Below are positions 596-45,976 of a stretch of 46,483 bases of DNA, piece by piece. The notes under the pieces are model-generated. The model was not told where the DNA came from. It saw only the letters and a list, made by a program, of their open reading frames with translations, and searched no databases. Position numbers and translations under genes: made by a program. Source of the DNA: Chiloscyllium plagiosum. Lineage: Eukaryota. The DNA lies in NCBI RefSeq assembly GCF_004010195.1, contig NC_057749.1, positions 12,739,180-12,785,662 of the forward strand. Reading direction: 5' to 3'. Each line of letters opens with the position of its first letter. Within the stretch, counting starts at the first letter, position 1.

Positions 596-2271
596 TTAAA
601 CTTTTGGATTTGAGATGTGAGTTAGTAATTTAATTGAACTTTCTTAGGAATAAAGTTGGGGATTTTAGTATAGTACACATCAGAAGTAGAGCCACCATTC
701 TCTCAGCTTGAAACTAAAGCAGCATGAACTCAAAAGAATAATATGCAAGTCAATTTGTACTGCAGGTACATGTTCCACTTAATTAAAATTTAAAAGTGGC
801 CATCTTCTATGAGAAAAACAGCCAGTTTATTATCGTGAGTTTAAAAAAAAGTTGGGTAATCCAGAGATATATTACATAAGGTTTTTCAAACAACTCATCA
901 GTAATGCCAGAACGTACAGCATCATCTAGCAGTACTATTTAAATTGTGAAGATGACGCATGCGTGTGCTAGTTTACGCAAAATGGACAAGTCAAATATGT
1001 GTTTTACATCAGAGCACTATGTTCAGAAGTAGATCATTTTGAAGATAGAACTGTGATATAGTGGGGCAATGCTCATGAATTCCAGAAGTAACAAGCCTCA
1101 CTTTCCATTGGATCTCTGGAAGCAGTGTGGCATTTTTCACTTTCCACTCCCACAATCCACTTTCCTGCCCTTTCCTTGTAACCCTTGATTCCCTAAATGA
1201 TCAAGAATTTATCTATTTAAGTTTTAACTGTACACAAGGACACTGCCTCCATAGCTGTCTGTGGCAAAGAGTTCCAAAGAAATTCATTTTTATCTAAGGA
1301 GTCTTAAATTGATGGCTCTTTATTCTGAGACTATGTCCTCTGGTCCAAGACTCTCTCATGAAGAGGAGCATCCTCTCAGCATTTACCTTGTCAAGCCCCT
1401 GAAGAATTCTATATGTTTCAACGAGATTACCACTCATTCTTCTGAACTCCATTGAGTAGAGTCTTAACCTGTTCAGCCTTTGCCCTTAGGACAAGCTCTC
1501 CATACCAGGCATCATTACAGTCAACCTTCTCTGATCTGCCTCCAACGAAATGATGTATTTCCTTAAATAAGGAGACCAAAACTGCTCATGGTACTCCAGA
1601 TGTGGGCTGACCAGTGTCTTGTACAGTTGCAGTAAGGCTTCTCTACTATGATACACTGCAACATTCCATTAGCCTTCCTGATTACCTGCTGCACATCTGT
1701 GTGCTAGCTTTGTGTTTTGTGACAAATACCCTAAATCCCTTCGTGTTGAAGCTTTCTGTAGTTTTTCTCCATTTAAATTATATTTTGATCTTTTGTCCTC
1801 CCTTCCAAAATGAACAATTACACATTTTCCCACATTATGGTTCATTTGCCAACTCTTTGCCCATTTACTGAACCTATCAATATTTCTCTGTAAACTGTTT
1901 GTATCCTTCTTGCAACCTGCCTAGTTTTGTGTCATCTGCAAATTTGGATGTAGTATATTTGCTTCCTTCCTCCATGTCATTAATATATATTGAAAACGGT
2001 TGCGGTCTGAATGCTGATCCCTGTGGAACTCTACTGGTTATAGTCCACCAACCTGAAAATGAATGCCTTATCTTATTTGGTGTTTCCTGTCCATTAACCA
2101 ATTCCCTATCTATGCCAATATACTATCTCCAGCACTGTTGCCTCTTATCTTATGAATTAACTTTTGTAAGGTACCGTGTTGAACACCTTCTCGAAGCCCA
2201 AATACAATACATCGACAGGTTCCCTTCTATCCACTCTAGTTGAAACCTCCTCGAAAGATTCTAATAAATTA

Positions 2272-2968
2272 TGTGGAGGTAATGGTGTTGGACTAGGGTG
2301 GACAAAGTTAAAAATCACACATAACCAGGTTATAGTCCAACAAATGTATTTGGAAGTACAAGCTTTCGAAGCGCTGTTCCTTCGTCAGGTAGCTCGTGGA
2401 GTAGGATCATAGGACACAGAAATTGCGATATATTAAACAAACCTATATTGCTGTTAAGTCTTTCATCTTTTAGAATGGGTTTCAGCTTTCAATTCATTAT
2501 TATGTAAATCCCAGAACTTCTTTCAAGTCACATTCCCGAGATAACTTTAAGGTTTTACAAAAAGGTGTTGATATCTCAGCTCAGACAATGCACTCAAGGT
2601 GTGAAGTTATAGTCTAAATGTATTCCAGTCTTGAGTCAGACTGGTTCTATTTCCAAAGTAGGAATTTATAAAATGTCACATGGATTATAAAAATATTGAC
2701 TGCCTACAGATTGTGTGCTTTTTGAATAAAATAGAATGCATCTGCAAATATAATTCTGCAAATTCATCACCCCATAGACTTAGGGGTATATGCTTCCATG
2801 CAAGGGGGAGAGAGAGAGAGTGTGTGTGTGTATGTGTGTGTGAGAGAGAGAGAGAATGAGAGCATGAGTGTGATGGAGTGTATGCCTGTGAGATGGTGTG
2901 AGCATGGGTGAGTGTGTGGAGGGTGTGTGTGTGTCTGAGAGAGCACATGTGTATGAGATATAAAGAGA
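2272..2968 (-). mobile_element. Penelope-like element 3' end with hammerhead-like core and microsatellite
   Basis: 11-bp TSD ctaataaatta (2261-2271, 2969-2979). Minus-strand CTGACGA-aggaacagcgcttc-GAAAgct at 2361-2388. Terminus shared with 28053-28225. Confidence 0.75.
2807..2960. repeat. Compound (GA)n/(GT)n microsatellite
   Basis: Directly visible dinucleotide runs. Confidence 0.9.
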
Positions 2969-3075
2969 CTAATAAATTAGTCAGACATCATTTCCCTTTT
3001 ATGAAACCACGTTGACTCTGCTTGATTAGATTATGATTTTCCAAATGTTCTGCTCTTCCTTCCTTATTAATTGAG

Positions 3076-4310
3076 GCCTATTATCCTAAATCCAGAGGAC
3101 TCTTGGCTTCTTTGGGACCAAATGAACACTGACACATTTGATCCTCAGGTAGGAATCCTGTTCTGTAAATGTTGTTGCTGAAGTCCATCAGTATCTCAAT
3201 GAACATCATTTGCAACTTTCAGGCATCCTGTCATTAACTCATTGATTCCAGGTGCTTTTCTTATTTCATCTTTTGGATCCCAGCTCAGCTGCTGTTAGCT
3301 TTGATCCTTCTCTTTCCTCTGATAGCACCAATTCACTTATGTCTTCATCATCATATAGCTGTCTGGTCTACTCCACTCGTTTTTCTGTATTCTTTTCGAA
3401 ACAAAGTACACTACCTTTGCTACATATACAGCCATTCTTTTAGTTATTCTCTTCCTGTTTGTCAGTGCTTTAACTTTCTCATGTGATACTGTAATGTTTT
3501 GCCTTTTCTCCCGTTTTTCTGTGTTTGTGCAAGCTATATGTTGTTTTTTTTGCCACTTAACATGTTTTTTAAATGCTTTTTATCTGCTTTTCTATTTCAT
3601 CCTATTATTAATTGGATGATTGCCTTTCTGCCACGTTTGGGCTGTACCCATCAATCACATGGCTGTTCTTACTTCTTAGTAAGTCCTCTTAATCTCTGTT
3701 CTTATTTACAGTCAAGATCTCCACAGCGGACCCAGCTGTTCCTACATCATTACTCCTATTTATTAGATTCCATAGCTGGTGAGTTTCCTACTCTTCCAAG
3801 GTGATTTGTTCATAAGAGGTATGGTTCTACCCTGGCTGTGCTACACATTTGCAGTGACATTGACTCTGTGTTGTGAGATCTTCTATCTTGACTACTGGTC
3901 CAGCTTTTATACAGGATAACATCCCTTGTATCCGTATTTGTGAGTTTGCTTTTCCCTCTCATTTAGTCTACACACAAGTTGTGGTCCCAGGGATTGCGCA
4001 ACATACTTCCAGCTCCTTGGAGGTACAAACAAGAGGTTCATTGCAATAGAGACCTGACATCCTTGATCATTCCTATGCTAATAGAGTATAAGGGGATTAG
4101 TCCTAATACTAGACCATACATATCCAAAGTTGGACATGTACTTGAAGATGAATTTGCAGGATAATTGGGCAAAATGTAGACTAGATTTGACAGATTTTTC
4201 AAAGAGCCAGCATGGCAGACAGGAGAAATGGCTTTCTTTGTACTGTAAAGTTTTAATTCAGAGTCCAGGTGTGAGAGAAAATAGTTCTGAGGGATTGTCA
4301 CTAATGTTAT
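3076..4310 (-). mobile_element. Possible highly decayed LTR/ERV-like remnant
   Basis: Strong purine skew on the minus strand, TATAAAAG at 3904-3911, and a downstream MG-start (MGTAQTWQKG, 3651) reminiscent of myristoylated Gag. No diagnostic domain seen. Confidence 0.25.
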
Positions 4311-4715
4311 TACTATAGAATGTCAGTCTGCAAGTTGTGCCATATCAGCAAAAATACAAAGAGTTAATATAAAAATAATAGTGACAAAACGTTTGTCGAA
4401 ACATATCTTTCTTCTTTTTATCTCCTTAAAAATGCTGGTGCAGAAGAAATATTTAAATTACTGGATACACTTCTTTCCATTTGATGTCTGTTTCCGGTGG
4501 GAAAACTAGAGTGTTCAACTAAGATGAGTAACAATATGAGCACAGGAAAGAAATATCTTTTTGGAGATTAGTAATAAACAAAGGAGGTTTTCCATAAACT
4601 AATTGAATAATGCACGTCAATCGAAATGAATCTCTACAAACTCACTGAAATGCAGACTCTCTTCAATCAGGTGGAAGTGTTGCTGAGCACACCAAAGAAT
4701 ATTTTTGAGGAGCTA

Positions 4716-4730
4716 CTGCCCTCCAGTGGA
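4716..4730 (-). promoter_or_regulatory. Candidate CTCF motif
   Basis: Minus strand CCACTGGAGGGCAG, one mismatch to CCACYAGRKGGCAG, in unique sequence. Confidence 0.3.
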
Positions 4731-4869
4731 ATTGCTGAATAATGTTTCAAACAAGGTCTGATTTCCATTCCACACAGTCTAAATTAATACAAGAATTACA
4801 ACTCTTTTGGAGAGAATAATCATTTGAATCAAAACTAAATTGAAAATCTAAACTAAAGCAGCCAATACA

Positions 4870-5078
4870 TGATACTCATCTACAAGATGCACTGCAGAAA
4901 TTTGCTAAGGCTCCTTAGATAGCATCGTCCAAACCCATAATCACTACCATTTAGAAGGACAAGGGCAGATGATATATGGGAACATTTGCAAGTTCCCCTC
5001 CAAGCCACTCATCATCCTGACTTGGAAACATATCACTGTTCTGTCAATGTCACCGGATCATAATCCTGGAATTCCCTC
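4870..5078 (+). mobile_element. 3' end of CR1/L2-group LINE (family of 27030-29926), left part
   Basis: Matches 29610-29810 (agaaggacaagggcag...ctgacttggaaa.atatcac). Continues at 12692 after the Gypsy insertion. Confidence 0.8.
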
Positions 5079-5204
5079 TGAAATAACTCCACAGAGGCCA
5101 GTGTCCTGTCATCAAGTCGCACTTTGTTTACAAATGGAGAGTTCTTGATACTGATCCAACTCCCTGAGCCACCTCTCAGAGTGAACAGGATGTCTGAGAC
5201 TCCT

Positions 5205-7986
5205 TTATTTTTCTTTTATTACCCCCACACTACCACCTAACTGTGATAGTGCTTATATTTTCCCACTCACCCATGTTGTGTGTGTGCAGGAGTGAGACAC
5301 AGTGAAAGACGCAAAGTGTACAAATCTTTATTCAATTTCCACCACCAAGAAGAAAGGAAACACCCAAGTGGCCAGTAACAAGCAGTGCACTTCTCATCAA
5401 AGGGCAATGCTGTGTGGTCAAACAGTGATGGGGATGCCAGGGATTAAATCAAAATAGAATTGGAGGGGGAAATAATACACTCCACTCCCTTAGGTGCCCA
5501 CCTCTCCCTGAACTGCTCAAGGGTGGATACCACGTGCTCCCTCTCTGAAGACACCTGGGCTCTAACATAACTGCCGAAGGAGGGCAGGCAATCGGCACTA
5601 ATGACCCCCTCCACGGCCCGTTGCCTGGACCTGTTTATGGCCAGTTTGGCCAGGTCCAGGGGTAGACTCACGCGGAGGTCCTCTGACCTGCCCTCCCCCT
5701 CTGCACCGGGTGCATCCAGAAGCAGAGAAGGTTTTTAAGAAAATCAAAAAGGGAGTGCAAGAACCCACATCCAATATATATATGGCTAACAGACTCCACA
5801 GCACCACAGAACAAGCAGTTGGGCTGGGAGTCTGTGAACCACCGCAATCTGCATCCTGAACCCGATGCCTGCAGAGTCCCGAGCAGATATTCGTGACCGA
5901 CTGTGTCGAACGCCTTCTCCTGGTTGAGAGGCAGGGAGGCGCTTGGCAGACCAGCCCGTCAACAGAAATGGATCAGGTCCCGGACCAGGTGGACGTTATC
6001 ATATATCCTCTGGCCCGCGACCGTGTAGGATGGGTCTGGGTGAATCATGTGGGCCAGCACAGAAGCCAGGCGAGAAGACAACACCCTGGCAAAGATTTTG
6101 CAGTCCGTGCTGAGGAGGGAGTCCAGGCGGAGACTCCAATTCTTTTTCCCTTTTTTCCCATTACCCCCACACTACTGCCTAACTGCGGTAGTGCCTTTTT
6201 AACCCCGCACCATGTTGTGTGTGTGCAGGTGTGGGACACAGTGAAAGACGCAAGGTGCATAAATCTTTATTCAGTTTCCACCACCAGGAAGAAAGGAAAC
6301 ACCCGAGTGGCCAGTGACAAGCAGTGCCCTTCTCATCAAAGGGCAATGCTGCGAGATCAAACAGTGAACAGGGGTTAAATCAAAATAGAATTGGACGGGA
6401 AAATAATGCACTCCATTCCCTGCGGCGCCCATCTCTCCCTGAACTACTCCAGGGTGTTGGTGGACACTGCGTGCTCCTTTTCCAGAGGCACCCGGGCTCT
6501 AACGTAACCGCGGAAGAAGGGCAGGCAGTCGGCCCTATTGACCCCCTCCATGGCCCGCTGCCTGGACCTGTTTATGGCCAGTTTGGCCAGGCCCAGGAGC
6601 AGAGAGACTCCTATTCTTTTTTTTTCTTGGGCAATGCTGTGTGATCACACTCCCCTTTTTTTTTAAACCCCCACACTACCACCTAACTGCGGTAGTGCTT
6701 ATTTTTTCCCCAAGGCTCCTGTTTATTTTTTTCTCTCCTTTCTTTATTTAACCCCCACACTACCGCCTAACCGCAGTAGTGCTTATTTTTTTTCCCAGCA
6801 CCCATGGTGTGTGTGTGCAGGTGTGAGACACAGCGAAAGACACAAAGTGCACGAATCTTTATTGAATTTCCACCACCAGGAAGATAGGAAAACACCCGGG
6901 TGGCCAGTGACAAACACTGCCCTTCACATCAAAGGGCAGTGCTGTGTGATCAAAACAGTGAGGGGGGAGGGTAGGGACTAAATCAAAATAGAGTAGGAGG
7001 GAGAAATGATGCACTCCACTCCCTGCGGCACCCACCTCTCCCTGAACAACTCCAGGGTGTTGGTCGACACCGCGTGCTCCTTCTCCAAGGACACCCGGGC
7101 TCTAACGTAACCGCGGAAGAGGGGCAGGCAGTCGGCCCTAATGACCCCCTCCACGGCCCGCTGCCTGGACCTGTTTATGGCCAGTTTAGCCAGACTCCTA
7201 TTCTTTTTTTTCTTCTTGCTTTTTATTTATTTATTTTTTTCTTTTTTTAAATTTTAACCCCACACTACCACCTAAGTGCGGTAGTGCTTATTTTTTTCCC
7301 CCAGCACCCATGGTGTGTGTGTGCAGGGGTGAGACACACCCTCACAATAGGCAAACACCCGGGTGGCCAGTGACAAACACTGCCCTTCACATGAAAGGGC
7401 AGTGCTGTATGATCAAAACAGTGAAGGGGAGGGGAGGGACTAAATCAGAATAGAGTTGGAGGGAGCAGACTCCTATTCTTTTTTTTCTCATTTTTTTCTT
7501 TTTTACATGGTCCACGGACTCCACAGCGCCACAAAACAAGCAGTTGGGCTGGGAGTCCATGAACCACCGCAACACTCCTGTTTATTTTTTCTTTTTTTTT
7601 CAGCACCCATGGTGTGTGTGTGCAGGTGTGAGACACAGTGAAAGACACAAAGTGCACCAATCTTTATTCAAATTCCACCACCAGGAAGATAGGAAAACAC
7701 CCGGGTGGAAGACTCCTATTCTTTTTTTTTTGCGTGTTAAAGTAGAATTGAACCCCAGTCCCTGGTGCTGTGAGGTAGCATTGCTAACTACTGACCCACT
7801 GTGCCATCCCGACATGGTGGTTTTTTTTTTCTTTTAAAACCCCCACACTACCACCTAAGTGCGGTAGTGCTTATTTTTTTTCCCCAGCACCCATGGTGTG
7901 TATGTGAATCTCCTGTTTATTTATTTATTTATTTATTTTTTCCTTTTTTTCTTCTTTTTTATCCCCAGCACCCATGGTGTGTGTGA
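5205..7986 (-). mobile_element. Tandem array of about 11 5'-truncated Tx1-clade (L1 group) non-LTR pieces inside the Gypsy LTR
   Basis: RT motifs on the minus strand at 5880-6120 (LLSTDCKIFARVLSSRL..IHPD..QEKAFD), zinc-knuckle CLFCGAVESVDHV, C-terminus FRERWAPKGVECIISPSNSILI*, repeated 3' UTR and poly(A) tails, and a recurring junction AGACTCCTATTC. Confidence 0.88.
7745..7810 (-). mobile_element. Isolated tRNA-derived head of HE1-type SINE with poly(A), within the Tx1 array
   Basis: Minus strand gggatggcacagtgggtcagtagttagcaatgctacctcacagcaccagggactggggttcaattc has A and B boxes and matches the SINE head at 19749. Confidence 0.8.
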
Positions 7987-9454
7987 AGACTCCTATTCTT
8001 ATCTGTCAGCTGGGGCTCCCTGATTGGGCCAGATTAACAGCCCCATTCAGGGACCTCCTATTCTATCAGGTCCACCTGACTAGACTCAGAGTGGGAGAGA
8101 TGTAAGTAGTGACTGAAACGAGATCAAAGACGTAGGCCGTTTTTGGTTGTTGCAGCTCCTTCTGTTGCATTTTTGTACCAGGTCAGGTCCCTTCAACTCT
8201 ACCTCTGATATGGGCAGCATTTAGTGCACAGTAACTCCCCTCTTGTGCCCAGAGCTTCTCGGAACACATTCAGTTTCCTCTTCAGGCAGAGATAGCAACA
8301 TCTACCATGTCCATCTTAGGTTCCATGGTAATTTCAAGGCTTGATGAAGAGAGAAAATCCAAGGGTTCCGGAACAGTGTGAGTTTGCAGCGTTCATATGA
8401 TCCACGTTTTGTTCAGGACTGTCTCAGCTAATTGAACTGTATACATCACTGGACCTGACCTCAAGTTGGCCATGCCCCTTACTTACCCATGCAGGGTCAT
8501 TTCCATAGTTTCTACACCAAACCTCAGCCCCTGAAGTAAAGTGTCTCTCTTGCTTAGCGGAGTCATGTGTATGGCATCAGTGTTCCTGATGCTGTTTCAC
8601 CTCCCCCCCACCCCCACCCCCCACCACACGTTAGGGAAGATCAGATTTAACCTTGTGCGAAGTCTTCTTCCCCTTATCAACTCTGCTGGAACTATCTGTG
8701 TCGGTGTATGAGTGGTGGTTCTACAATCAAATAGGCATCAGGACAAAAACAGAAATTATTGGAAAAGCTCAGAACATTTGGCAGCATTTATGGAGAGAAA
8801 TCAGTTAATTTTTAGGTCGAGTGACCCTTCCTCATAAGCCAGTTGTTTTGGTTTTTATATAGGAACTGGGCCAGTATGGTATCTAATGAAATTGTAGGCT
8901 TTTTTATAAGCCTTCAAAGTTTGCACTAATCTTTCTGCCATGTCATTGGATGATGGATGGTATGGTGCTGTTCTGAAATATCATTCAACTTTAGGATATA
9001 CAGAAATTCCCTGCTGGTAAACAGTCACCCATTATCTGTGGCCAACACTTCTGGGAGTGTTGAAAAAGATGTATGCAGTTTTTCTATCATCGTCCCCATG
9101 TTTGACAAATGAACGCCAGCATGACTATGCACGTCCAGCCACCTTGAGTGGGCATCCACAATGACTGAGAACATTGAGTGCATGGAAGGACCAGCATAGT
9201 CAAATGTGTAATGGAGTCTAGGGTTTACCCAGCCATGAATGTGGGGGAGCTGTTGGCAGTAATTTTTGTCCTTGTTGACACTCTGTGCACTGCTCCACCA
9301 GCATAGCCATGTCTACATACAATCCTGACTACCAGACATAACATATTGCCAAGTTATTCATTTTGGAAACATCTGAATGACCCTGATAGAGTTCAGTCCG
9401 TATCTGGCAGTGACCTTTGCTTGGTACAATCATTCTTGCTTCCCAAAATATCAG

Positions 9455-11409: not shown

Positions 11410-12282
11410 CAGCAGCAATTACAATGGCTTGCCAGCCTGGATCCTGAAGACACCATTAATCATTTGGCTGAGGCTTGGCTTTGTTTTGGGGTTTTGCTGT
11501 GGGCTGACCGAGTCCCTTTGTTCAAGATATGTTCTGAGTGAGGCTGTGCAATTTCCTTCACGCAGCTGGTGTTCCCCAAGCTCCATTGGACCTGCGAGGG
11601 TGTCCACTTCCATCGAAATACACTGCAACTCATATGGCCCACTTGCCGCATTTTCCCAATGATAAAACCAGTTGTAGTGCTTGCTTGAAGTCCAGTTGGT
11701 CTTCGGCTAGTGGGCACTTTTGCATGCTTACCTCATTAATCCCACATACCAAACAGTTTCTCAGCATCTCACTAAGGGTTAAACCAAAGTCACATGCCTC
11801 TGCCAGTCATCATAACCTAGTCAAAAGTCTGATATAGATTCCCCTGGTTCTCAAATTGCCGAGTAAAACTGATAGCATTTCAGAATTAGAAGAGGCTTCG
11901 GATCCTAATACTCCTGAACTAAATCCATCAACATTTGAAAAGTTTTAATATCTTGTGCCTCAGAGAAAGTTAGGCTCCTAATAACCAAAAAAGCTGTGAG
12001 GAGAATTACTTGTTGCTTTTCATCTACCCCAATGTTATTTGCCTCGAATAATATAACACATCCTTTCCACATACTGGGCCCAGTCTTCAACAGCTGGATT
12101 GAAAACATCAAGCTTCCCAAACAATGACATGATGCCAGAAGTGCTTACCCCAACTCAAAGGCAACTGTTACAAGCAAATTTCCAGCTCTGAGAGAGAGAA
12201 CAGGATGTCTGTCACTGTTGTTCCTGTCTATCAGCCAGGGCTCCCTAAGTGGACCAGATTAACAGCCCCAGTCAGGGAACTC

Positions 12283-12650
12283 ATAGAGTCATAGAGATGT
12301 ACTGCACAGAAACAGACCCTTCGGTCCAACTTGTCCATTCTGACCAGATATTCCAACCCAATCTATTCCCTCCTGCCAGCACCTGGCCCATATCCCTCCA
12401 AATCCTTCCTATTCAGATAAACATCCAGATGCCTTTTAAATGTTGTAATTGTACCAGCCTCCACCACTTCCTATGGCAGCTCAATCCATACACGTACCAC
12501 ACTCTGAATGAAAGAGTTGCCTCTTTTATATCTTTCCCCTCTCACCTTAAACCTATGCCCTCTAGTTCTGGACTCCCTCACCCCAGGGAAAAGACTTTGT
12601 CTATTTATCCTATCTATGCCCCTCATAATTTTATAAACCTCTATAAGGTC
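12283..12650 (-). mobile_element. CR1/HER1-type LINE 3' end inserted in the Gypsy 5' LTR
   Basis: Tail catagagtcatagag. Reverse complement of 39530-39910. Confidence 0.9.
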
Positions 12651-38119: not shown

Positions 38120-39910
38120 GCAAGAACTTTCGAAAGCTGATTGGGGGCAGATGATCACAGGTAAAGGGATGGCTGGAAAATGGGAAGCCTTCAGAAATGA
38201 GATAACGAGAATCCAGAGAAAGTATATTCCTGTCAGGGTGAAAGGGAAGGCTGGTATGTATAGGGAATGCTGATGACTAAAGAAATTGAGGGTTTGGTTA
38301 AGAAAAAGAAGGGAGCATATGTAAGGTATAGACAGGATAGATCGAGTGAATCCTTAGAAGAATATAAAGGCAGTAGGAGTATACTGAAGAGGGAAATCAG
38401 GAGGGCAAAAAGGGGATGTGAGATAATTTTGGCAAATAAAATTAAGGAGAATCCAAAGGGTTTTTATAAATACGTTAAGGACAAAAGGGTAACTAGGGAG
38501 AAAATAGGGCCCCTTGAAGATCAGCAAAGTGGCCTTTGTGTGGAGCTGCTGAAAATGGGGGAGATACTAAATGAATATTTTGCATCAGTATTTACTGTGG
38601 TAAAGGATATGGAAGACATAGACTGTAGGGAAATAGATGGTGACATCTTGAAAAATGTCTTGCTGAGATATTTGTATAATCGATAGTCACAGGTGAGGTG
38701 CCGGAAGACCAGAGGTTGGCAAACGTGGTGCCACTGTTTAAGAAGGTGGTAAAGACAAGCCAGGGAACTGTAGACCAGTGAGCACGACGAGTTGTTGGAG
38801 GGAATCCTGAGGGACAGGATGTACTTGTATTTGGAAAGGCAAGGACTGATTAGGGATAGTCAACATGGTTTTGTGCATGGGAAATCATGTCTCACAAACT
38901 TAATTGAGTTTTTTGAGGAAATAACAAAGAAGATTGATGAGGACAGAGCAATAGATGTGATCTATATGGACTTCAGTAAGGCATTCGACAAGGTTCCCCA
39001 TGGGAGACTGATTAGCAAGGTTAGATCTCATGGAATACAGGGAGAACAAGCCATTTGGATACAGAACTGGCTCAAAGGTAGAAGACAGAGGGTGGTGGNN
39101 NNNNNNNNNNNNNNNNNNNNNNNNNNNNNNNNNNNNNNNNNNNNNNNNNNNNNNNNNNNNNNNNNNNNNNNNNNNNNNNNNNNNNNNNNNNNNNNNNNNN
39201 NNNNNNNNNNNNNNNNNNNNNNNNNNNNNNNNNNNNNNNNNNNNNNNNNNNNNNNNNNNNNNNNNNNNNNNNNNNNNNNNNNNNNNNNNNNNNNNNNNNN
39301 NNNNNNNNNNNNNNNNNNNNNNNNNNNNNNNNNNNNNNNNNNNNNNNNNNNNNNNNNNNNNNNNNNNNNNNNNNNNNNNNNNNNNNTCCTTCCTATCGGA
39401 AAGATGTTGTGAAACTTGAAAGGGTTCAGAAAAGATTTATGAGGATATTGCCAGGGTTGGAGGATTTGAGCTATAGGGAGAGGCTGAACAGGCTGGGGCT
39501 GTGCTACCTGGAGCATCGGAGGCTGAGGGGTGACCTTATAGAGGTTTACAAAATTATGAGGGGCATGGATAGGGTAAATAGGCAAAGTCGGACTCCCTTG
39601 GGGTCGGGGAGTCCAGAACTAGAGGGCATAGGTTTAGGGTGAGAGGGGAAAGATATAAAAGAGACCTACAGGGCAACCTTTTCACACAGAGTGTGGTACG
39701 TGGAATGAGCTGCCAGGGGAAGTGGTGGAGGCTGGTACAATTGCAACATTTAAGAGGCATCTGGATGGGTGTATGAATAGGAAGGGTTTGGAGAGATATG
39801 GGCCGCGTGCTGGCAGGTGAGACTAGATTGGGTTGGGATATCTGGTCAGCATGGACGAGTTGGACTGAAGGGTCTGTTTCCATGCTATACATCTCTATGA
39901 CTCTATGACT
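38120..39910 (+). mobile_element. CR1/HER1-type LINE ORF2, with assembly gap
   Basis: SQHGFVHGKSCLTNLIEFFEE..DVIYMDFSKAFDKVPH. Tail ctctatgactctatgactc. Confidence 0.95.
39099..39386. other. Assembly gap (N run); second gap at 40976-41006
   Basis: Runs of n. Confidence 1.
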
Positions 39911-42340: not shown

Positions 42341-43629
42341 AGTTCCATAGGTTTGTAAACTGTGATGGAAACTATCAGGAAAAGGAAGGAATCCAGTACT
42401 GACCTCTCAGGGACTCCACTACATACCTGTTAGAATTATGAAAAAAATCCATTTACCCTATTACTCAGTTTCCTCTCACTCAGCCAATTCTGTATTCAGG
42501 TTGCTCCTGTCCTTTTATTTCATCTACTATAATTTTGCTTGCAAATCTGTCATGAGACACTATTAAATGTCTTTTGGAAGTCCATGTACAAGATAGCATG
42601 TCCTCATTAACCCTCTTGGTTAATCTTCAGAAAACTCCAGCAAGTTAGTTCGACATGTTTTTCGTTTAATGTAACAATGCTGGCCTCCCATAGTTAATCT
42701 CCATTTGTCCACATGACTATTAATTTTGTCTTGAATTATTGTTTTTACTTGAATGCACGAATATTAACTTCAAAGAAGGAAAGAGCACACATTAAGCCAG
42801 ATGAGTAACTAACAAACTGATTAAAGAAAATCCTAATCATTGGTTTTGAATGGGAAAGATCAATTCCTATTCTATAATCATAGACTTTTTCTAAATGTGT
42901 GGAAGTCGTAAGACGTACCTCTGCGGCCGTCATATCCTGAGGTTGGAGTTGAACTCAGACCTTCTGACCAAGAATTAGGGACACTATCATTGTAACTCAA
43001 GACCCTCACCAGCTATCTCTGAAGATTGTCCAACAACAAAATTTGCTGATTATTTTTTCTTATATTTTCTAAATTCACCTCCATTTTTGATTAAGTAACT
43101 TAAGTTCTGCATGATATCTAAAATCTAGTAATCCTAGTTTTATATTTACTGGTGGTCCATTTTATATTGAAAATCAGAAGTGAGGCTTTTATTATCAATA
43201 TAGAAAGTCTCTTCACCACACACACACCAAGGATGTTTCAAAGTGGATGATTTACAAACAGGATGTAATGTCCACTTGCTTTGTTTTTCTGAAGTCTTGT
43301 AATCTAATTTGAGTCAGTAACTCTCTAACCAACAGATGGATTTAAAAGGCAATTTTATTATTCTTGGAACAGAAGAGAGTGGTGCATTTCTTCATTCAGA
43401 AATATGAGGTTGGGGGAGCATTCCCATGGGTGAATGACAAACTAACTTCCCACGTTCAGGATTAAGTAGGCAGCCATTAAGGGAATGATGATAATGATTG
43501 AGGACTACATTAGAACTCCACAGAGGCTGGTCTCCTGTCAATAAGTCACCTTTTATTTACATATGATAGTACTTGATACTGGTCTGGCTTCCTCAGAGCC
43601 AGCTCTCAGAATAAGCAGAACCTCTGACT

Positions 43630-43642
43630 CTCCTGTTTATAT
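43630..43642 (-). promoter_or_regulatory. TATA box of Gypsy LTR (ATATAAACAGGAG); AATAAA about 80 nt downstream
   Basis: Minus-strand TATAAA followed by AATAAA near 43552-43557, the usual LTR order. Confidence 0.6.
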
Positions 43643-44254
43643 CCGTCAGCTAGGGTTCCCTGACTGGACCAGGTTAACAGCCCCAATCAGGGAACTTATA
43701 TGCTATGAGGTCCACCAGGCTGACCTTGTTTCAATCACCAGATCCCTCCCCCAACAAGTCTAGGGACGTGGGCCTATTCTTTTTCTTGTAGCATCTCCTG
43801 GGTATTTTTGCACTGGATCTGGTCCCTCCAAATAAGCCTTGGATGTGGGCAATGTGTACTGGACTGTAGCCTGCCTGTTGTACCTGGAGCATCTCGGAAG
43901 AAATTCATCCTCTTCTTCAGGTGGTAAAGGCATCAAGGCTGCAATATCCACTGTGTTTATCTCAGACTCAAGCTTCTTCGACACTCGGAGGGGGCGAACT
44001 CACGGGTTCTGACAGCCTTTCCAGCTGTTCCGAGGGGCCGGGTACATTTTGCTCCTCCCCAATTTGAGAGTTGTGGTGCACGTACTTATTCAGGACCGCC
44101 TCACCTACCAGAACTTTGTACATCATGGGACCTGACCACATGTCGACCATGCAGGGCCATTTCCATGGTTTCAGCATCAATCTCTAACTCACTTAGAGGG
44201 GTCTTGTGTCAGCATTGGTGTTCCCATTGCCGTCTCAGCTGTCCCCCCAGCCAT

Positions 44255-44585: not shown

Positions 44586-45976
44586 ATATGTGGGAGCTCC
44601 TGGCAATAGCTTTTGCCCTGTTGGCACTCTGGGCATTGCCCTATCAACACAGCTATATCTGCATTCAATCCTGGCCACCAGGCATAATGTCTCACCAACA
44701 TCTTTATTTTGGACACCCCAGGATGACCCTAGTGGAGTTCAGACAGTATTTGGCAGCAACCTTTGCTCAGGACAATCACTCTTGCTGCCTAGATTAAAAT
44801 GCCATCCTCTGTGGTGATCTGGTCTTACCAGGTCCAGGAAAGATTTTAATTTCTGGTTATGATGCACTTTTATTTCCCCAACACCACCAGCTGTTTTAGT
44901 TTTGCCAGGACCGGAACTTTTTGTCCCCAGTTTGATATTGTCAGCAGTCACCTGGAAGATTAAAACCAGAATGGATTGTTCCAGTGGCAGCACTACCAGT
45001 GATGTATCTGTCAGTGGGAGGCGGCTCAAAGCACTTGCTATTTGGCTTCCCAGGTAGTGTTCCAACTTGTACACCCTTAGGATGAGAGCCCACCGCTGAA
45101 CTAGACCTGAAGCTAAGGGCAACACATCCTTGTCTACTGTGAGTAGCCCTAGCAGGGGTTTTGGTCTGTTATTATTACAGTATTGATGGAATTTTGTCAC
45201 ACCAAAGATGAATGCCAAACCTTTCTTCTCTATCTGGGTGTATTTGTGCTCTGCATCAGACAAAGACCAGAAAGCATACACGGCTGGTTGTTCCTCTCCA
45301 TTGGGCCATTGCTCCAATACCATGCAGAGAGAGACACACCGCATGTCAGCCCAGATCTCGCTTGGGATCATAGTGAGTCACCACTTTATTGATTGACTTG
45401 TTGTTGTCACATGTACAGAAACACTGTGAAAAGTATTGTTTTGCATGCTATTTGGCAGATTGTACCATACAAAGTGCTTCAAGGTAGCAGAACAAAATGT
45501 AGGGATACAGTGTTACAGCCACTGAGAAGGTGCAGAGCGAGAGATTAGAATTAACATTTGAGAGGTACATTCAAAAGTCTGATAACAGCGAGGAACAAGC
45601 TATTCTTAAATTGATGATGGCTGCTTTTTCACTTCCTTAAAGGCTACATCTTGGCTATGAGACCATTTCCAAGGCTGACCCATTTTCAATTGCAGTTGTA
45701 AGGGTGTCAAGATGGAGCTCAGGTTACATATTAACTTTCTATTATAATTCACCAATCCACGAAAAGTACCTAGGCTCCGGTACAGATGTGGGAGCCAGGG
45801 CACCTTTGATTGCCTCACTTTATCTTCCTAGGGGTGTAACCCAGTCTTGTTGATTCTGTAGTCCAAGTAGGTTACTTGGGGTGTGTGGAACACAATTTGT
45901 TCCCTTCTAAGGCATATGCCCATCATGGAGAAATGTCAAGTTCTCCAAGTGCTCTTTATTGGTCTTCCCTGTAATT

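Follow-up and report, generated by a model that had tools for sequence, protein, structure and literature searches.

Near its left end, a 46,483-nt stretch of Chiloscyllium plagiosum DNA (contig NC_057749.1; referred to here as the window and numbered from its first letter) carries a long terminal repeat (LTR) of a retrotransposon, split by an array of fragments of a second transposable element. The fragments belong, as judged below by similarity, to a long interspersed element (LINE) of the Tx1 clade. The left part of the LTR (5079-5208) ends at 5196-5208 and the right part begins at 7987, reaching ~8086; in alignments and in blastn searches the two make one continuous match to an intact copy at ~43510-43740. 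That the halves rejoin in this way had been proposed in a first reading of the letters of this DNA (the original prediction). Read along the sense strand, which is the minus strand of the window, the order is LTR U3 part, then units F, E, D, C, B and A, then LTR R/U5 part, with one copy of a target-site duplication (TSD) at every junction (Table 1). Searches with blastn detect 12 element pieces in the window, all within 5224-7985 and all on the minus strand. Tailed pieces number 11 (one each in A, B and D, two in E, three each in C and F), in line with the "about 11" co-oriented pieces first counted; one of the 11 derives from a short interspersed element (SINE) and not from Tx1, and another, a short piece at ~6630-6655, was recognised by eye only. 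It is highly probable, taking the array as assembled, that the ~230-bp LTR of an old Ty3/Gypsy-type retrotransposon was hit repeatedly by a Tx1-clade element, always at one position and with the insert oriented like the LTR.

Table 1. Features of the split LTR, the insertion array and the related LTR copy (window coordinates; RT, reverse transcriptase; ORF, open reading frame)
Feature	Position	Strand	Basis
Downstream (R/U5-side) portion of the interrupted Gypsy-type LTR	5079..5196	-	alignment; blastn to natural LTR copies covers 5085-5204; termini from solo copies
Outermost, oldest TSD copy, decayed, 3 differences	5197..5208	-	direct reading
Unit A, oldest: tail, 3' region 5224-5712, further segment 5710-5852, RT-region segment 5849-6124 joined directly	5209..6130	-	blastn
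TSD copy, 1 mismatch	6131..6142	-	mismatch search
Unit B: tail and 3'-terminal ~440 bp (6166-6603)	6143..6604	-	blastn
TSD copy, exact	6605..6616	-	exact search
Unit C, composite of three pieces	6617..7191	-	direct reading and blastn
TSD copy, exact	7192..7203	-	exact search
Unit D: long heterogeneous A-rich tail and 3' region with internal deletion (7241-7338, 7347-7465)	7204..7466	-	blastn
TSD copy, exact	7467..7478	-	exact search
Unit E, composite	7479..7709	-	direct reading and blastn
TSD copy, exact	7710..7721	-	exact search
Unit F, composite	7722..7986	-	direct reading and blastn
TSD copy, exact, adjoining the native upstream LTR flank	7987..7998	-	alignment and exact search
Upstream (U3-side) portion of the interrupted LTR	7999..8086 (5' boundary approximate)	-	alignment; blastn covers 7989-8086
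Intact, unoccupied LTR of the same family	43510..43740	-	alignment, solo-copy termini
Degraded pol ORF of the LTR element, upstream of the intact LTR	44739..45377	-	Pfam RT_RNaseH 1.3e-9, RT_RNaseH_2 1.7e-7

A 12-mer, AGACTCCTATTC, occurs exactly at 6605, 7192, 7467, 7710 and 7987 (5 observed against 0.01 expected; none of 100 shuffled sequences reached 5). A copy at 6131 has one mismatch and the copy at 5197-5208, AGACTCCTTTAT, has three differences by direct reading, so that the five exact and two decayed positions listed at the outset stand. The exact search is the valid test here: allowing up to two mismatches is uninformative (6 found against 4.3 expected) and misses the copy at 5197. The 12-mer is a target-derived TSD and not part of the element consensus, because it is contiguous LTR sequence in the alignment of the window's intact copy and because six other arrays repeat local variants of the TSD between their units instead of the window 12-mer. 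Alignment with intact LTRs gives a duplication length of 13 bp, the first A being ambiguous with the tail. The family's usual TSD is TAAACAGGAGTGT, from which the window 12-mer differs. The preferred site in the LTR, which is TATA-box-like, reads GATA^TAAACAGGAGTGT^CAGAGG, and the window copy reads GATA^AGAATAGGAGTCT^CAGACA. The right-hand junction at 7987 keeps the full original target context, as the LTR alignment confirms.

The split LTR belongs to a family with 4366 first-look candidates genome-wide. Its members are ~230 bp long and have TG...CA ends, as seen in six solo copies with unrelated flanks, from which the terminus on the minus strand can be read as ...GGAGTTATTTCA. The intact window copy begins with TGGTGATTG at 43740; TATAAACAGGAG starts at 43641, which places TATAAAC 100 nt into the LTR, and AATAAA starts at 43557, another 84 nt on. 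A polypurine tract, GGGGGAGGGA, lies at 43743-43752, just upstream of the LTR start, in this one copy. The internal region upstream of the LTR is common to copies. Integrase matches (Integrase_H2C2, 7.7e-14, at one locus; a weak rve match, 2e-4, at another) fall between the RNase H region and the LTR, co-oriented with both. Among the 24 matches listed for the RNase H ORF, RT_RNaseH and Integrase_H2C2 are present in 24 of 24, RVT_1 in 23 and rve in 23; a PDB search with the same ORF gave no match. We accept the target, on this domain order, as the probable LTR of an old Ty3/Gypsy-type retrotransposon whose window copies are degraded; the "Gypsy LTR" label was well chosen, given the TG...CA ends, the polypurine tract and the pol order RT, RNase H, integrase. 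An alternative identity, the 3' end of another LINE, was rejected. Homology among the LTR elements stops before the RVT_1/zf-RVT ORFs found upstream at L042, L050 and L053, which are neighbouring elements; the RT at L053 is only 24% identical to the Tx1 RT. The intact copy, with its perfect site at 43641, is unoccupied, and so is a partial third copy of the family at 12182-12285 (minus strand), whose site is diverged (…GACAGGAACAACAGTGAC, sense strand).

The inserted element was identified through long genomic copies at two loci, L073 and L074. These encode an Exo_endo_phos domain (2.2e-5; 24.7 bits against a 24.5-bit cut-off), an RVT_1 domain and, below threshold, zf-RVT (25.2 bits against a 27.5-bit cut-off, in the partial copy at L073:2141-2893). 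Open frames upstream of the apurinic/apyrimidinic endonuclease (APE) region, at L073 3518-5581, have no Pfam match. The RT ORF matches the founding Tx1 protein, YTX2_XENLA (P0027; Xenopus Tx1 ORF2), with E 1e-120, 201 of 340 residues being identical (59%) without gaps, at 422 bits. The APE region is collinear with that of Tx1 ORF2 and identical at 119 of 301 residues (40%). Scores fall to 138 bits against human L1 ORF2p and to 65 bits or less against R2. Judged by similarity at these two regions, which bears out the predicted clade, the element is a Tx1-clade non-LTR retrotransposon (L1 group). The proposal that the 3' untranslated region (UTR) of the Tx1 element is itself an LTR derivative was rejected: local alignments were no better than shuffles in 7 of 7 LTR copies (z -1.6 to 0.6). 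The 3' UTR contains two strong hairpins (6913-6943 and 6757-6782, minus strand), one with a 13-bp stem and one with a 10-bp stem immediately before the tail. By eye, the terminal stem varies among copies only by changes compatible with G-U pairing, and the first hairpin is the start or stop point of many very short array pieces.

Each unit is built from the 3' part of the element, cut short at the 5' end and closed by a heterogeneous A-rich tail. The T-rich run that follows each 12-mer copy on the plus strand is this tail, read from the other side. By blastn the six units have six different 5' truncation points, and their lengths and tails differ as well. Besides A, the tails include G as well as runs of (AAAT)n and (TA)n, and they vary among units with the same body (examples at 7204-7240 and 7907-7953); mixed tailing, slippage or decay may have produced this. 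An Rfam scan of 5000-8300 returned 3 matches, all with E > 0.3 and far under the gathering score.

Units C, E and F have a more complex structure. Unit C consists of a hairpin-region piece (~6630-6655) with its tail, a 43-bp 3' end (6670-6712) with its tail, and a 440-bp 3' region (6754-7193) whose own tail finishes in a non-local ...ATAAACAGGAGCCTT (6713-6726). In unit E, an internal 65-bp piece with an A-rich end (7504-7572) is preceded by a non-local 13-bp TAAACAGGAGTGT at 7573-7585, identical to the standard TSD of the main LTR family; then come a tail and a 108-bp piece (7601-7708). In unit F, an 84-nt module derived from a SINE (7732-7815) lies between two A10 tails; then come a 65-bp 3' end (7842-7906), the non-local ...ATAAACAGGAGATT (7907-7920) and its tail, and lastly a piece of 32 bp (7954-7985). 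None of these internal joints is the local 12-mer. We read the three composites as carrying target copies from other loci, brought in by read-through or array transcripts or by template switching, and not as separate insertions. Separate insertion is therefore a reading for the six TSD-bounded units and not for each piece within C, E and F. Unit A is likewise internally deleted or composite, since its RT-region segment is joined directly.

Comparable structures occur elsewhere in the genome. At six other loci a TSD-plus-LTR segment is followed by a fresh tail; together with the non-local TSDs, these transduced segments indicate that transcription ran on from donor copies into their LTR, or traversed donor arrays, and that the resulting RNAs were copied. 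Further copies of the 84-nt module of unit F, ending at the same two points, lie on two other contigs, C27 (100% identical) and C6 (98%). On both contigs TAAACCACC stands before the module, and a Tx1 copy adjoins it directly by its 5' end. Its source is a complete SINE on contig C11 that has the same head. The recurrence indicates template switching, either with one discrete RNA repeatedly used as the switch partner or with one chimera that was later re-copied. L073 (2244-3640) and L074 (1809-3620), which lie on different contigs, share a build in which a partial 3' fragment is joined to a short-tandem-repeat 5' UTR before the first ATG, suggesting that a composite unit was itself retro-copied.

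The 5' ends of the units also follow a pattern. Independent units of one array often share a 5' breakpoint yet differ in their tails (three units at L010, four at L014, three at L018), and the shared breakpoints fall where the element resembles the local TSD, for example at the internal CCATAAACAGGTyrAGGCAGC. This fits 5' joining guided by microhomology. Within the element itself there is a sequence that mimics the target (CCATAAACAGGTCCAGGCAGC), at 7178, 6575 and 5638 (minus strand); at L010, three units with different tails all start exactly after it.

Divergence separates the units into age classes. The best genomic relatives of unit A are 85-87% identical and those of unit B 88-90%, against 95-96% for the 6741-6990 segment of unit C. 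Distances from the nearest subfamily majority are 48 of 442 sites (10.9%) for A, 28 of 436 (6.4%) for B, 9 of 353 (2.5%) for the 440-bp piece of C, 12 of 208 (5.8%) for D, 2 of 108 for the 108-bp piece of E and 2 of 64 for F. The decayed TSD copies sit with units A and B. An order of A, then B, then the rest is well supported by these comparisons, and the expectation that the leftmost units would be the oldest and most decayed proved correct. As assembled, the six units would stem from no fewer than three rounds separated in time, first A, next B and last the C-F group. Of the original prediction of about six successive events growing the array from one end, the order A, then B, then the rest as a group is borne out.

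To place the window in context, a genome-wide search with the 250-nt 3' UTR segment of unit C (6741-6990) gave 2046 first-look candidates, of which 40 were scored (92-100% identical over the full query); for 3' ends of the family in general, first-look candidates number 2,000-5,000. The target sample comprised 29 other loci fetched with the 3' UTR, 24 of them resolvable. At 15 of the 29 (15 of the 24 resolvable) the insertion occupies the same LTR position, always co-oriented with the LTR; no array sampled has an LTR flank in opposite orientation. At five loci the array runs off the locus or a TSD was not seen. A frequency of 15 in 29 at one LTR position lies above the level taken as target preference for Tx1 elements, namely one sequence type in more than 20% of flanks, in Kojima 2015 (PMC4494074). 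The hexamer TATAAA occurs ~3e6 times per genome, by extrapolation from the window, against 4366 first-look candidates of the LTR family, so that the LTR share of insertions (62%) is far above chance and recognition must extend beyond the hexamer. That share may be an undercount, since a second LTR subfamily, reading ...GGAGATT|CAGAGAGTCTCC, lies outside the LTR panel; its sequence explains the frequent ...GGAGATT motif. This subfamily (...AAACAGGAGATT|CAGAGAGTCTCCTCA...) is often targeted too, as seen at eight loci.

Pattern counts offer an indirect view of how often the site is filled. The string GACAGATATAAACAGGAGTGT, which combines upstream flank and TSD, has 1094 exact occurrences, 670 of which continue into the LTR (CAG); CAG follows the site in 12 of 14 intact LTR copies, and one contig (C1) contains 19 upstream-flank-plus-TSD sites without a following CAG. 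These counts suggest an occupancy of at most 39%, with a poorly constrained point estimate of ~29%. Four pairs of junctions on other contigs, paired by coordinates only, lie 5.5 kb, 7.2 kb, 64 bp and 240 bp apart. Very short insertions were also seen: one unit at L024 (q1414-1485) is only an A-rich tail between two TSD copies and one at L014 has only ~10 nt of the element, from which it follows that abortive insertions also regenerate the site.

A number of results weigh against repeated, polarised use of a single site. Nine of the 24 resolvable insertions lie outside LTRs, with clear 12-16-bp TSDs, and a sample drawn with the older unit B had 2 of 9 insertions at the LTR site, 6 elsewhere and 1 unclear. 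The non-LTR TSDs mostly start with TAA(A) after TA, and their likeness to TAAACAGGAG fades with distance from the nick. From these junctions we place the nick at TA^TAAA, a position ambiguous by one A. Target use is thus a strong preference and not strict site specificity: the claim of one-site targeting holds for the 15 co-oriented LTR insertions and not for the nine at other TA^TAAA-type sites. The clade placement, for its part, is similarity-based and not tree-based. As to polarity, unit D (5.8%) lies on the "young" side of C (2.5%; Fisher p = 0.065), although its internal deletion may inflate its count. Because units A and B come from an older subfamily, their distance is in part a subfamily difference rather than decay, and the panels, chosen by similarity to units C and B, flatter those two units. 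In other arrays, units downstream of the sampled unit (R/U5 side) have a median distance of 5.2% (n = 23) and those upstream (U3 side) 3.05% (n = 18), with a one-sided Mann-Whitney p of 0.006 that is optimistic, since independence does not hold among units of the same array; no age trend is seen in five other arrays (L003, L010, L013, L021 and L030). Polarised growth therefore survives as a tendency, in the window and beyond it, with unit D out of order. The pattern is consistent with the site copy next to the native upstream flank being re-used more often than the other copy, though not always.

Repeated insertion at one LTR site could proceed as follows. Where the TSD begins on its upstream side, the APE endonuclease would nick the bottom strand, and this nick would prime the synthesis of cDNA (target-primed reverse transcription, TPRT). 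The top strand would be cut ~13 bp downstream, and the 5' end of the truncated cDNA would be joined to the TSD via microhomology. Each insertion is accompanied by a TSD of ~13 bp, which yields two copies of the site: one still next to its native upstream flank, the other following an A-rich tail. If the copy with the native flank were re-used preferentially, new units would arise mostly on the U3 side (to the right on the plus strand) and the oldest would lie beside the R/U5 side.

What brings the element to the LTR could be the endonuclease or the RNA. For R1 and R2, annealing of the RNA end to the nicked target has been proposed. Here, read-through transcripts ending in a target copy might anneal to the nicked LTR, the endonuclease needing only TA^TAAA. 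Such homing, guided mainly by RNA, is possible, though we lean away from it. The nine non-LTR insertions share little beyond TA^TAAA at the nick, and both the transduced TSD-plus-LTR segments followed by new tails at six loci and the non-local TSDs within window units are of the kind that it would produce; co-transcription of the target is discussed as an aid to specificity in PMC4494074. Yet most tails adjoin the local TSD directly, without a second copy, and non-LTR targets such as ATAACCAATGG and TTAAAGATGAG still resemble the longer motif, which fits an extended preference of the protein. The present data do not separate RNA guidance from endonuclease specificity, and the former is a live alternative.

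A more speculative extension, which we hold to be rather unlikely, starts from the position of the insertions. Because these lie 13 bp downstream of the LTR TATA box, in LTR orientation and upstream of AATAAA, thousands of dead Gypsy LTRs may be lending the Tx1 family their promoter and poly(A) signals. Read-through RNAs ending in the target would then guide the return to other LTRs, so that homing would reinforce itself and arrays would be transcribed and copied anew as whole units. If so, the non-local TSDs in C, E and F and the LTR segments transduced elsewhere would be its footprints, and the site would be more than a safe haven.

It is also conceivable, but improbable, that the whole array, or at least C-F, arose in a single complex event in which the cDNA copied the single-stranded top-strand TSD after each template and was re-primed on another RNA. 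Template switching is evident from the SINE-derived module, the short tailed internal pieces and composite units at many loci; five TSD copies are exact, without any mutation, and the distances of units C, E and F show no significant difference. However, A and B are much older than C and their TSD copies are decayed, differences for which one reiterated-priming event cannot account. Moreover, pieces within a unit are joined without a local TSD, so template switching alone does not regenerate it, and the absence of mutations over 60 bp of TSD is, by our own estimate, expected about 1 time in 5 at 2.5% divergence. A single event might still explain part of C-F. Tandem duplication, by unequal crossing-over or slippage between TSD or tail copies, is very improbable for the window: blocks with the same junction and tail do repeat in three other arrays, but identical breakpoints, the mark of such a process, are absent here, the six units all differing in 5' breakpoint, length and tail and belonging to subfamilies of different age. 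An assembly artefact made of collapsed or chimeric repeats hardly merits belief, even in a region composed of high-copy repeats, given arrays of the same build at seven independent loci on other contigs, locus-specific unit junctions and LTR halves that rejoin cleanly.

Repeated targeting of one LTR site by a Tx1-clade element has precedents. Target preference is a known feature of the clade, in which Keno, Kibi and Koshi each go to targets of their own. The in-vitro specificity of the Tx1L endonuclease was reportedly addressed by Christensen and colleagues in 2000. Tx1L of Xenopus laevis inserts at one site of the DNA transposon Tx1D, according to PMC4494074. It provides the closest protein relative found for the window family, and both are APE-type LINEs that land in another transposon family; Tx1L's target is a piggyBac-type DNA transposon, whereas here it is a Gypsy-type LTR, with a share of insertions elsewhere. 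The crocodilian Tx1-8_Crp and Tx1-4_AMi are preferentially inserted into LTR retrotransposons (Kojima 2015, PMC4494074), the same kind of target, in another host lineage; the main text of that paper names neither LTR superfamily nor site. The same paper accounts for SINEU-3 copies inserted in tandem and "sandwiching a TSD" by one insertion after another into a regenerated target. These insertions, together with Tx1-Mar in Mariner-N4_AMi, resemble the window array in the TSD-sandwiching arrangement, in a 16-bp TSD of similar size and in the foreign RNA acquired via template switching (PMC4494074). They differ in that two SINE copies are involved there and, here, six units with 11 pieces of the LINE itself and a measurable age order. 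The novelty first claimed was consequently overstated, LTR-preferring Tx1 families and TSD-sandwiching tandem insertions having already been published (PMC4494074). In the literature searched, we found no description of the window Tx1 family, its site, or any LTR-aimed Tx1 from a cartilaginous fish. The finding is an unusually well resolved new example of the known site-preferring Tx1 elements, and no new mechanism or class of system.

More distant comparisons are also instructive. R1 and R2 of ribosomal DNA share site-specific TPRT into a multicopy target and variable 5' truncation. The endonuclease of R2, however, is restriction-like, R1 falls in a different APE clade, and both insert into a host gene, whereas the target here is a dead transposon. 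Human L1, which has a related RT, likewise shows TPRT, TSDs, 5' truncation, 3' transduction and chimeras with small RNAs; it differs in having only a loose TTTT/AA preference and is not known to build single-site arrays. Read-through transcripts of R1 and R2 that carry target sequence are cited in PMC4494074. In CRISPR arrays, as here, a short repeat separates acquired inserts and additions tend toward one end. In the window there is no evidence of function, processing or selection, the polarity is statistical, and the "repeat" is a by-product of staggered nicking. The suggestion of a repeat-spacer-like chronological record is an analogy only.

The array documents a LINE that uses a short site in a dead retrotransposon as a reusable docking point. 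It defines a target of ~13 bp (TA^TAAACAGGAG...) for a Tx1-type APE endonuclease, testable in vitro and comparable with that of Tx1L. Arrays of dated units reveal which regenerated copy of a target gets re-used, and the composite units are natural evidence that a Tx1 enzyme carries out 3' transduction, switches templates and joins 5' ends guided by microhomology. For annotation, such arrays are nested insertions and should not be entered as a satellite or a new long repeat.

Other repeats in the window are of separate origin. Near-perfect inverted repeats occur at 30672-30848/30920-31096 (99%) and 19143-19239/19250-19346 (98%). The high-copy element that forms them recurs at 10.1, 34.5 and 41.0 kb; it looks like a hairpin-forming SINE or miniature inverted-repeat transposable element and is unrelated to the array. 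An ORF at 38774-39412 (plus strand) has an RVT_1 match (7.4e-9) and is a remnant of a separate, unrelated retroelement.

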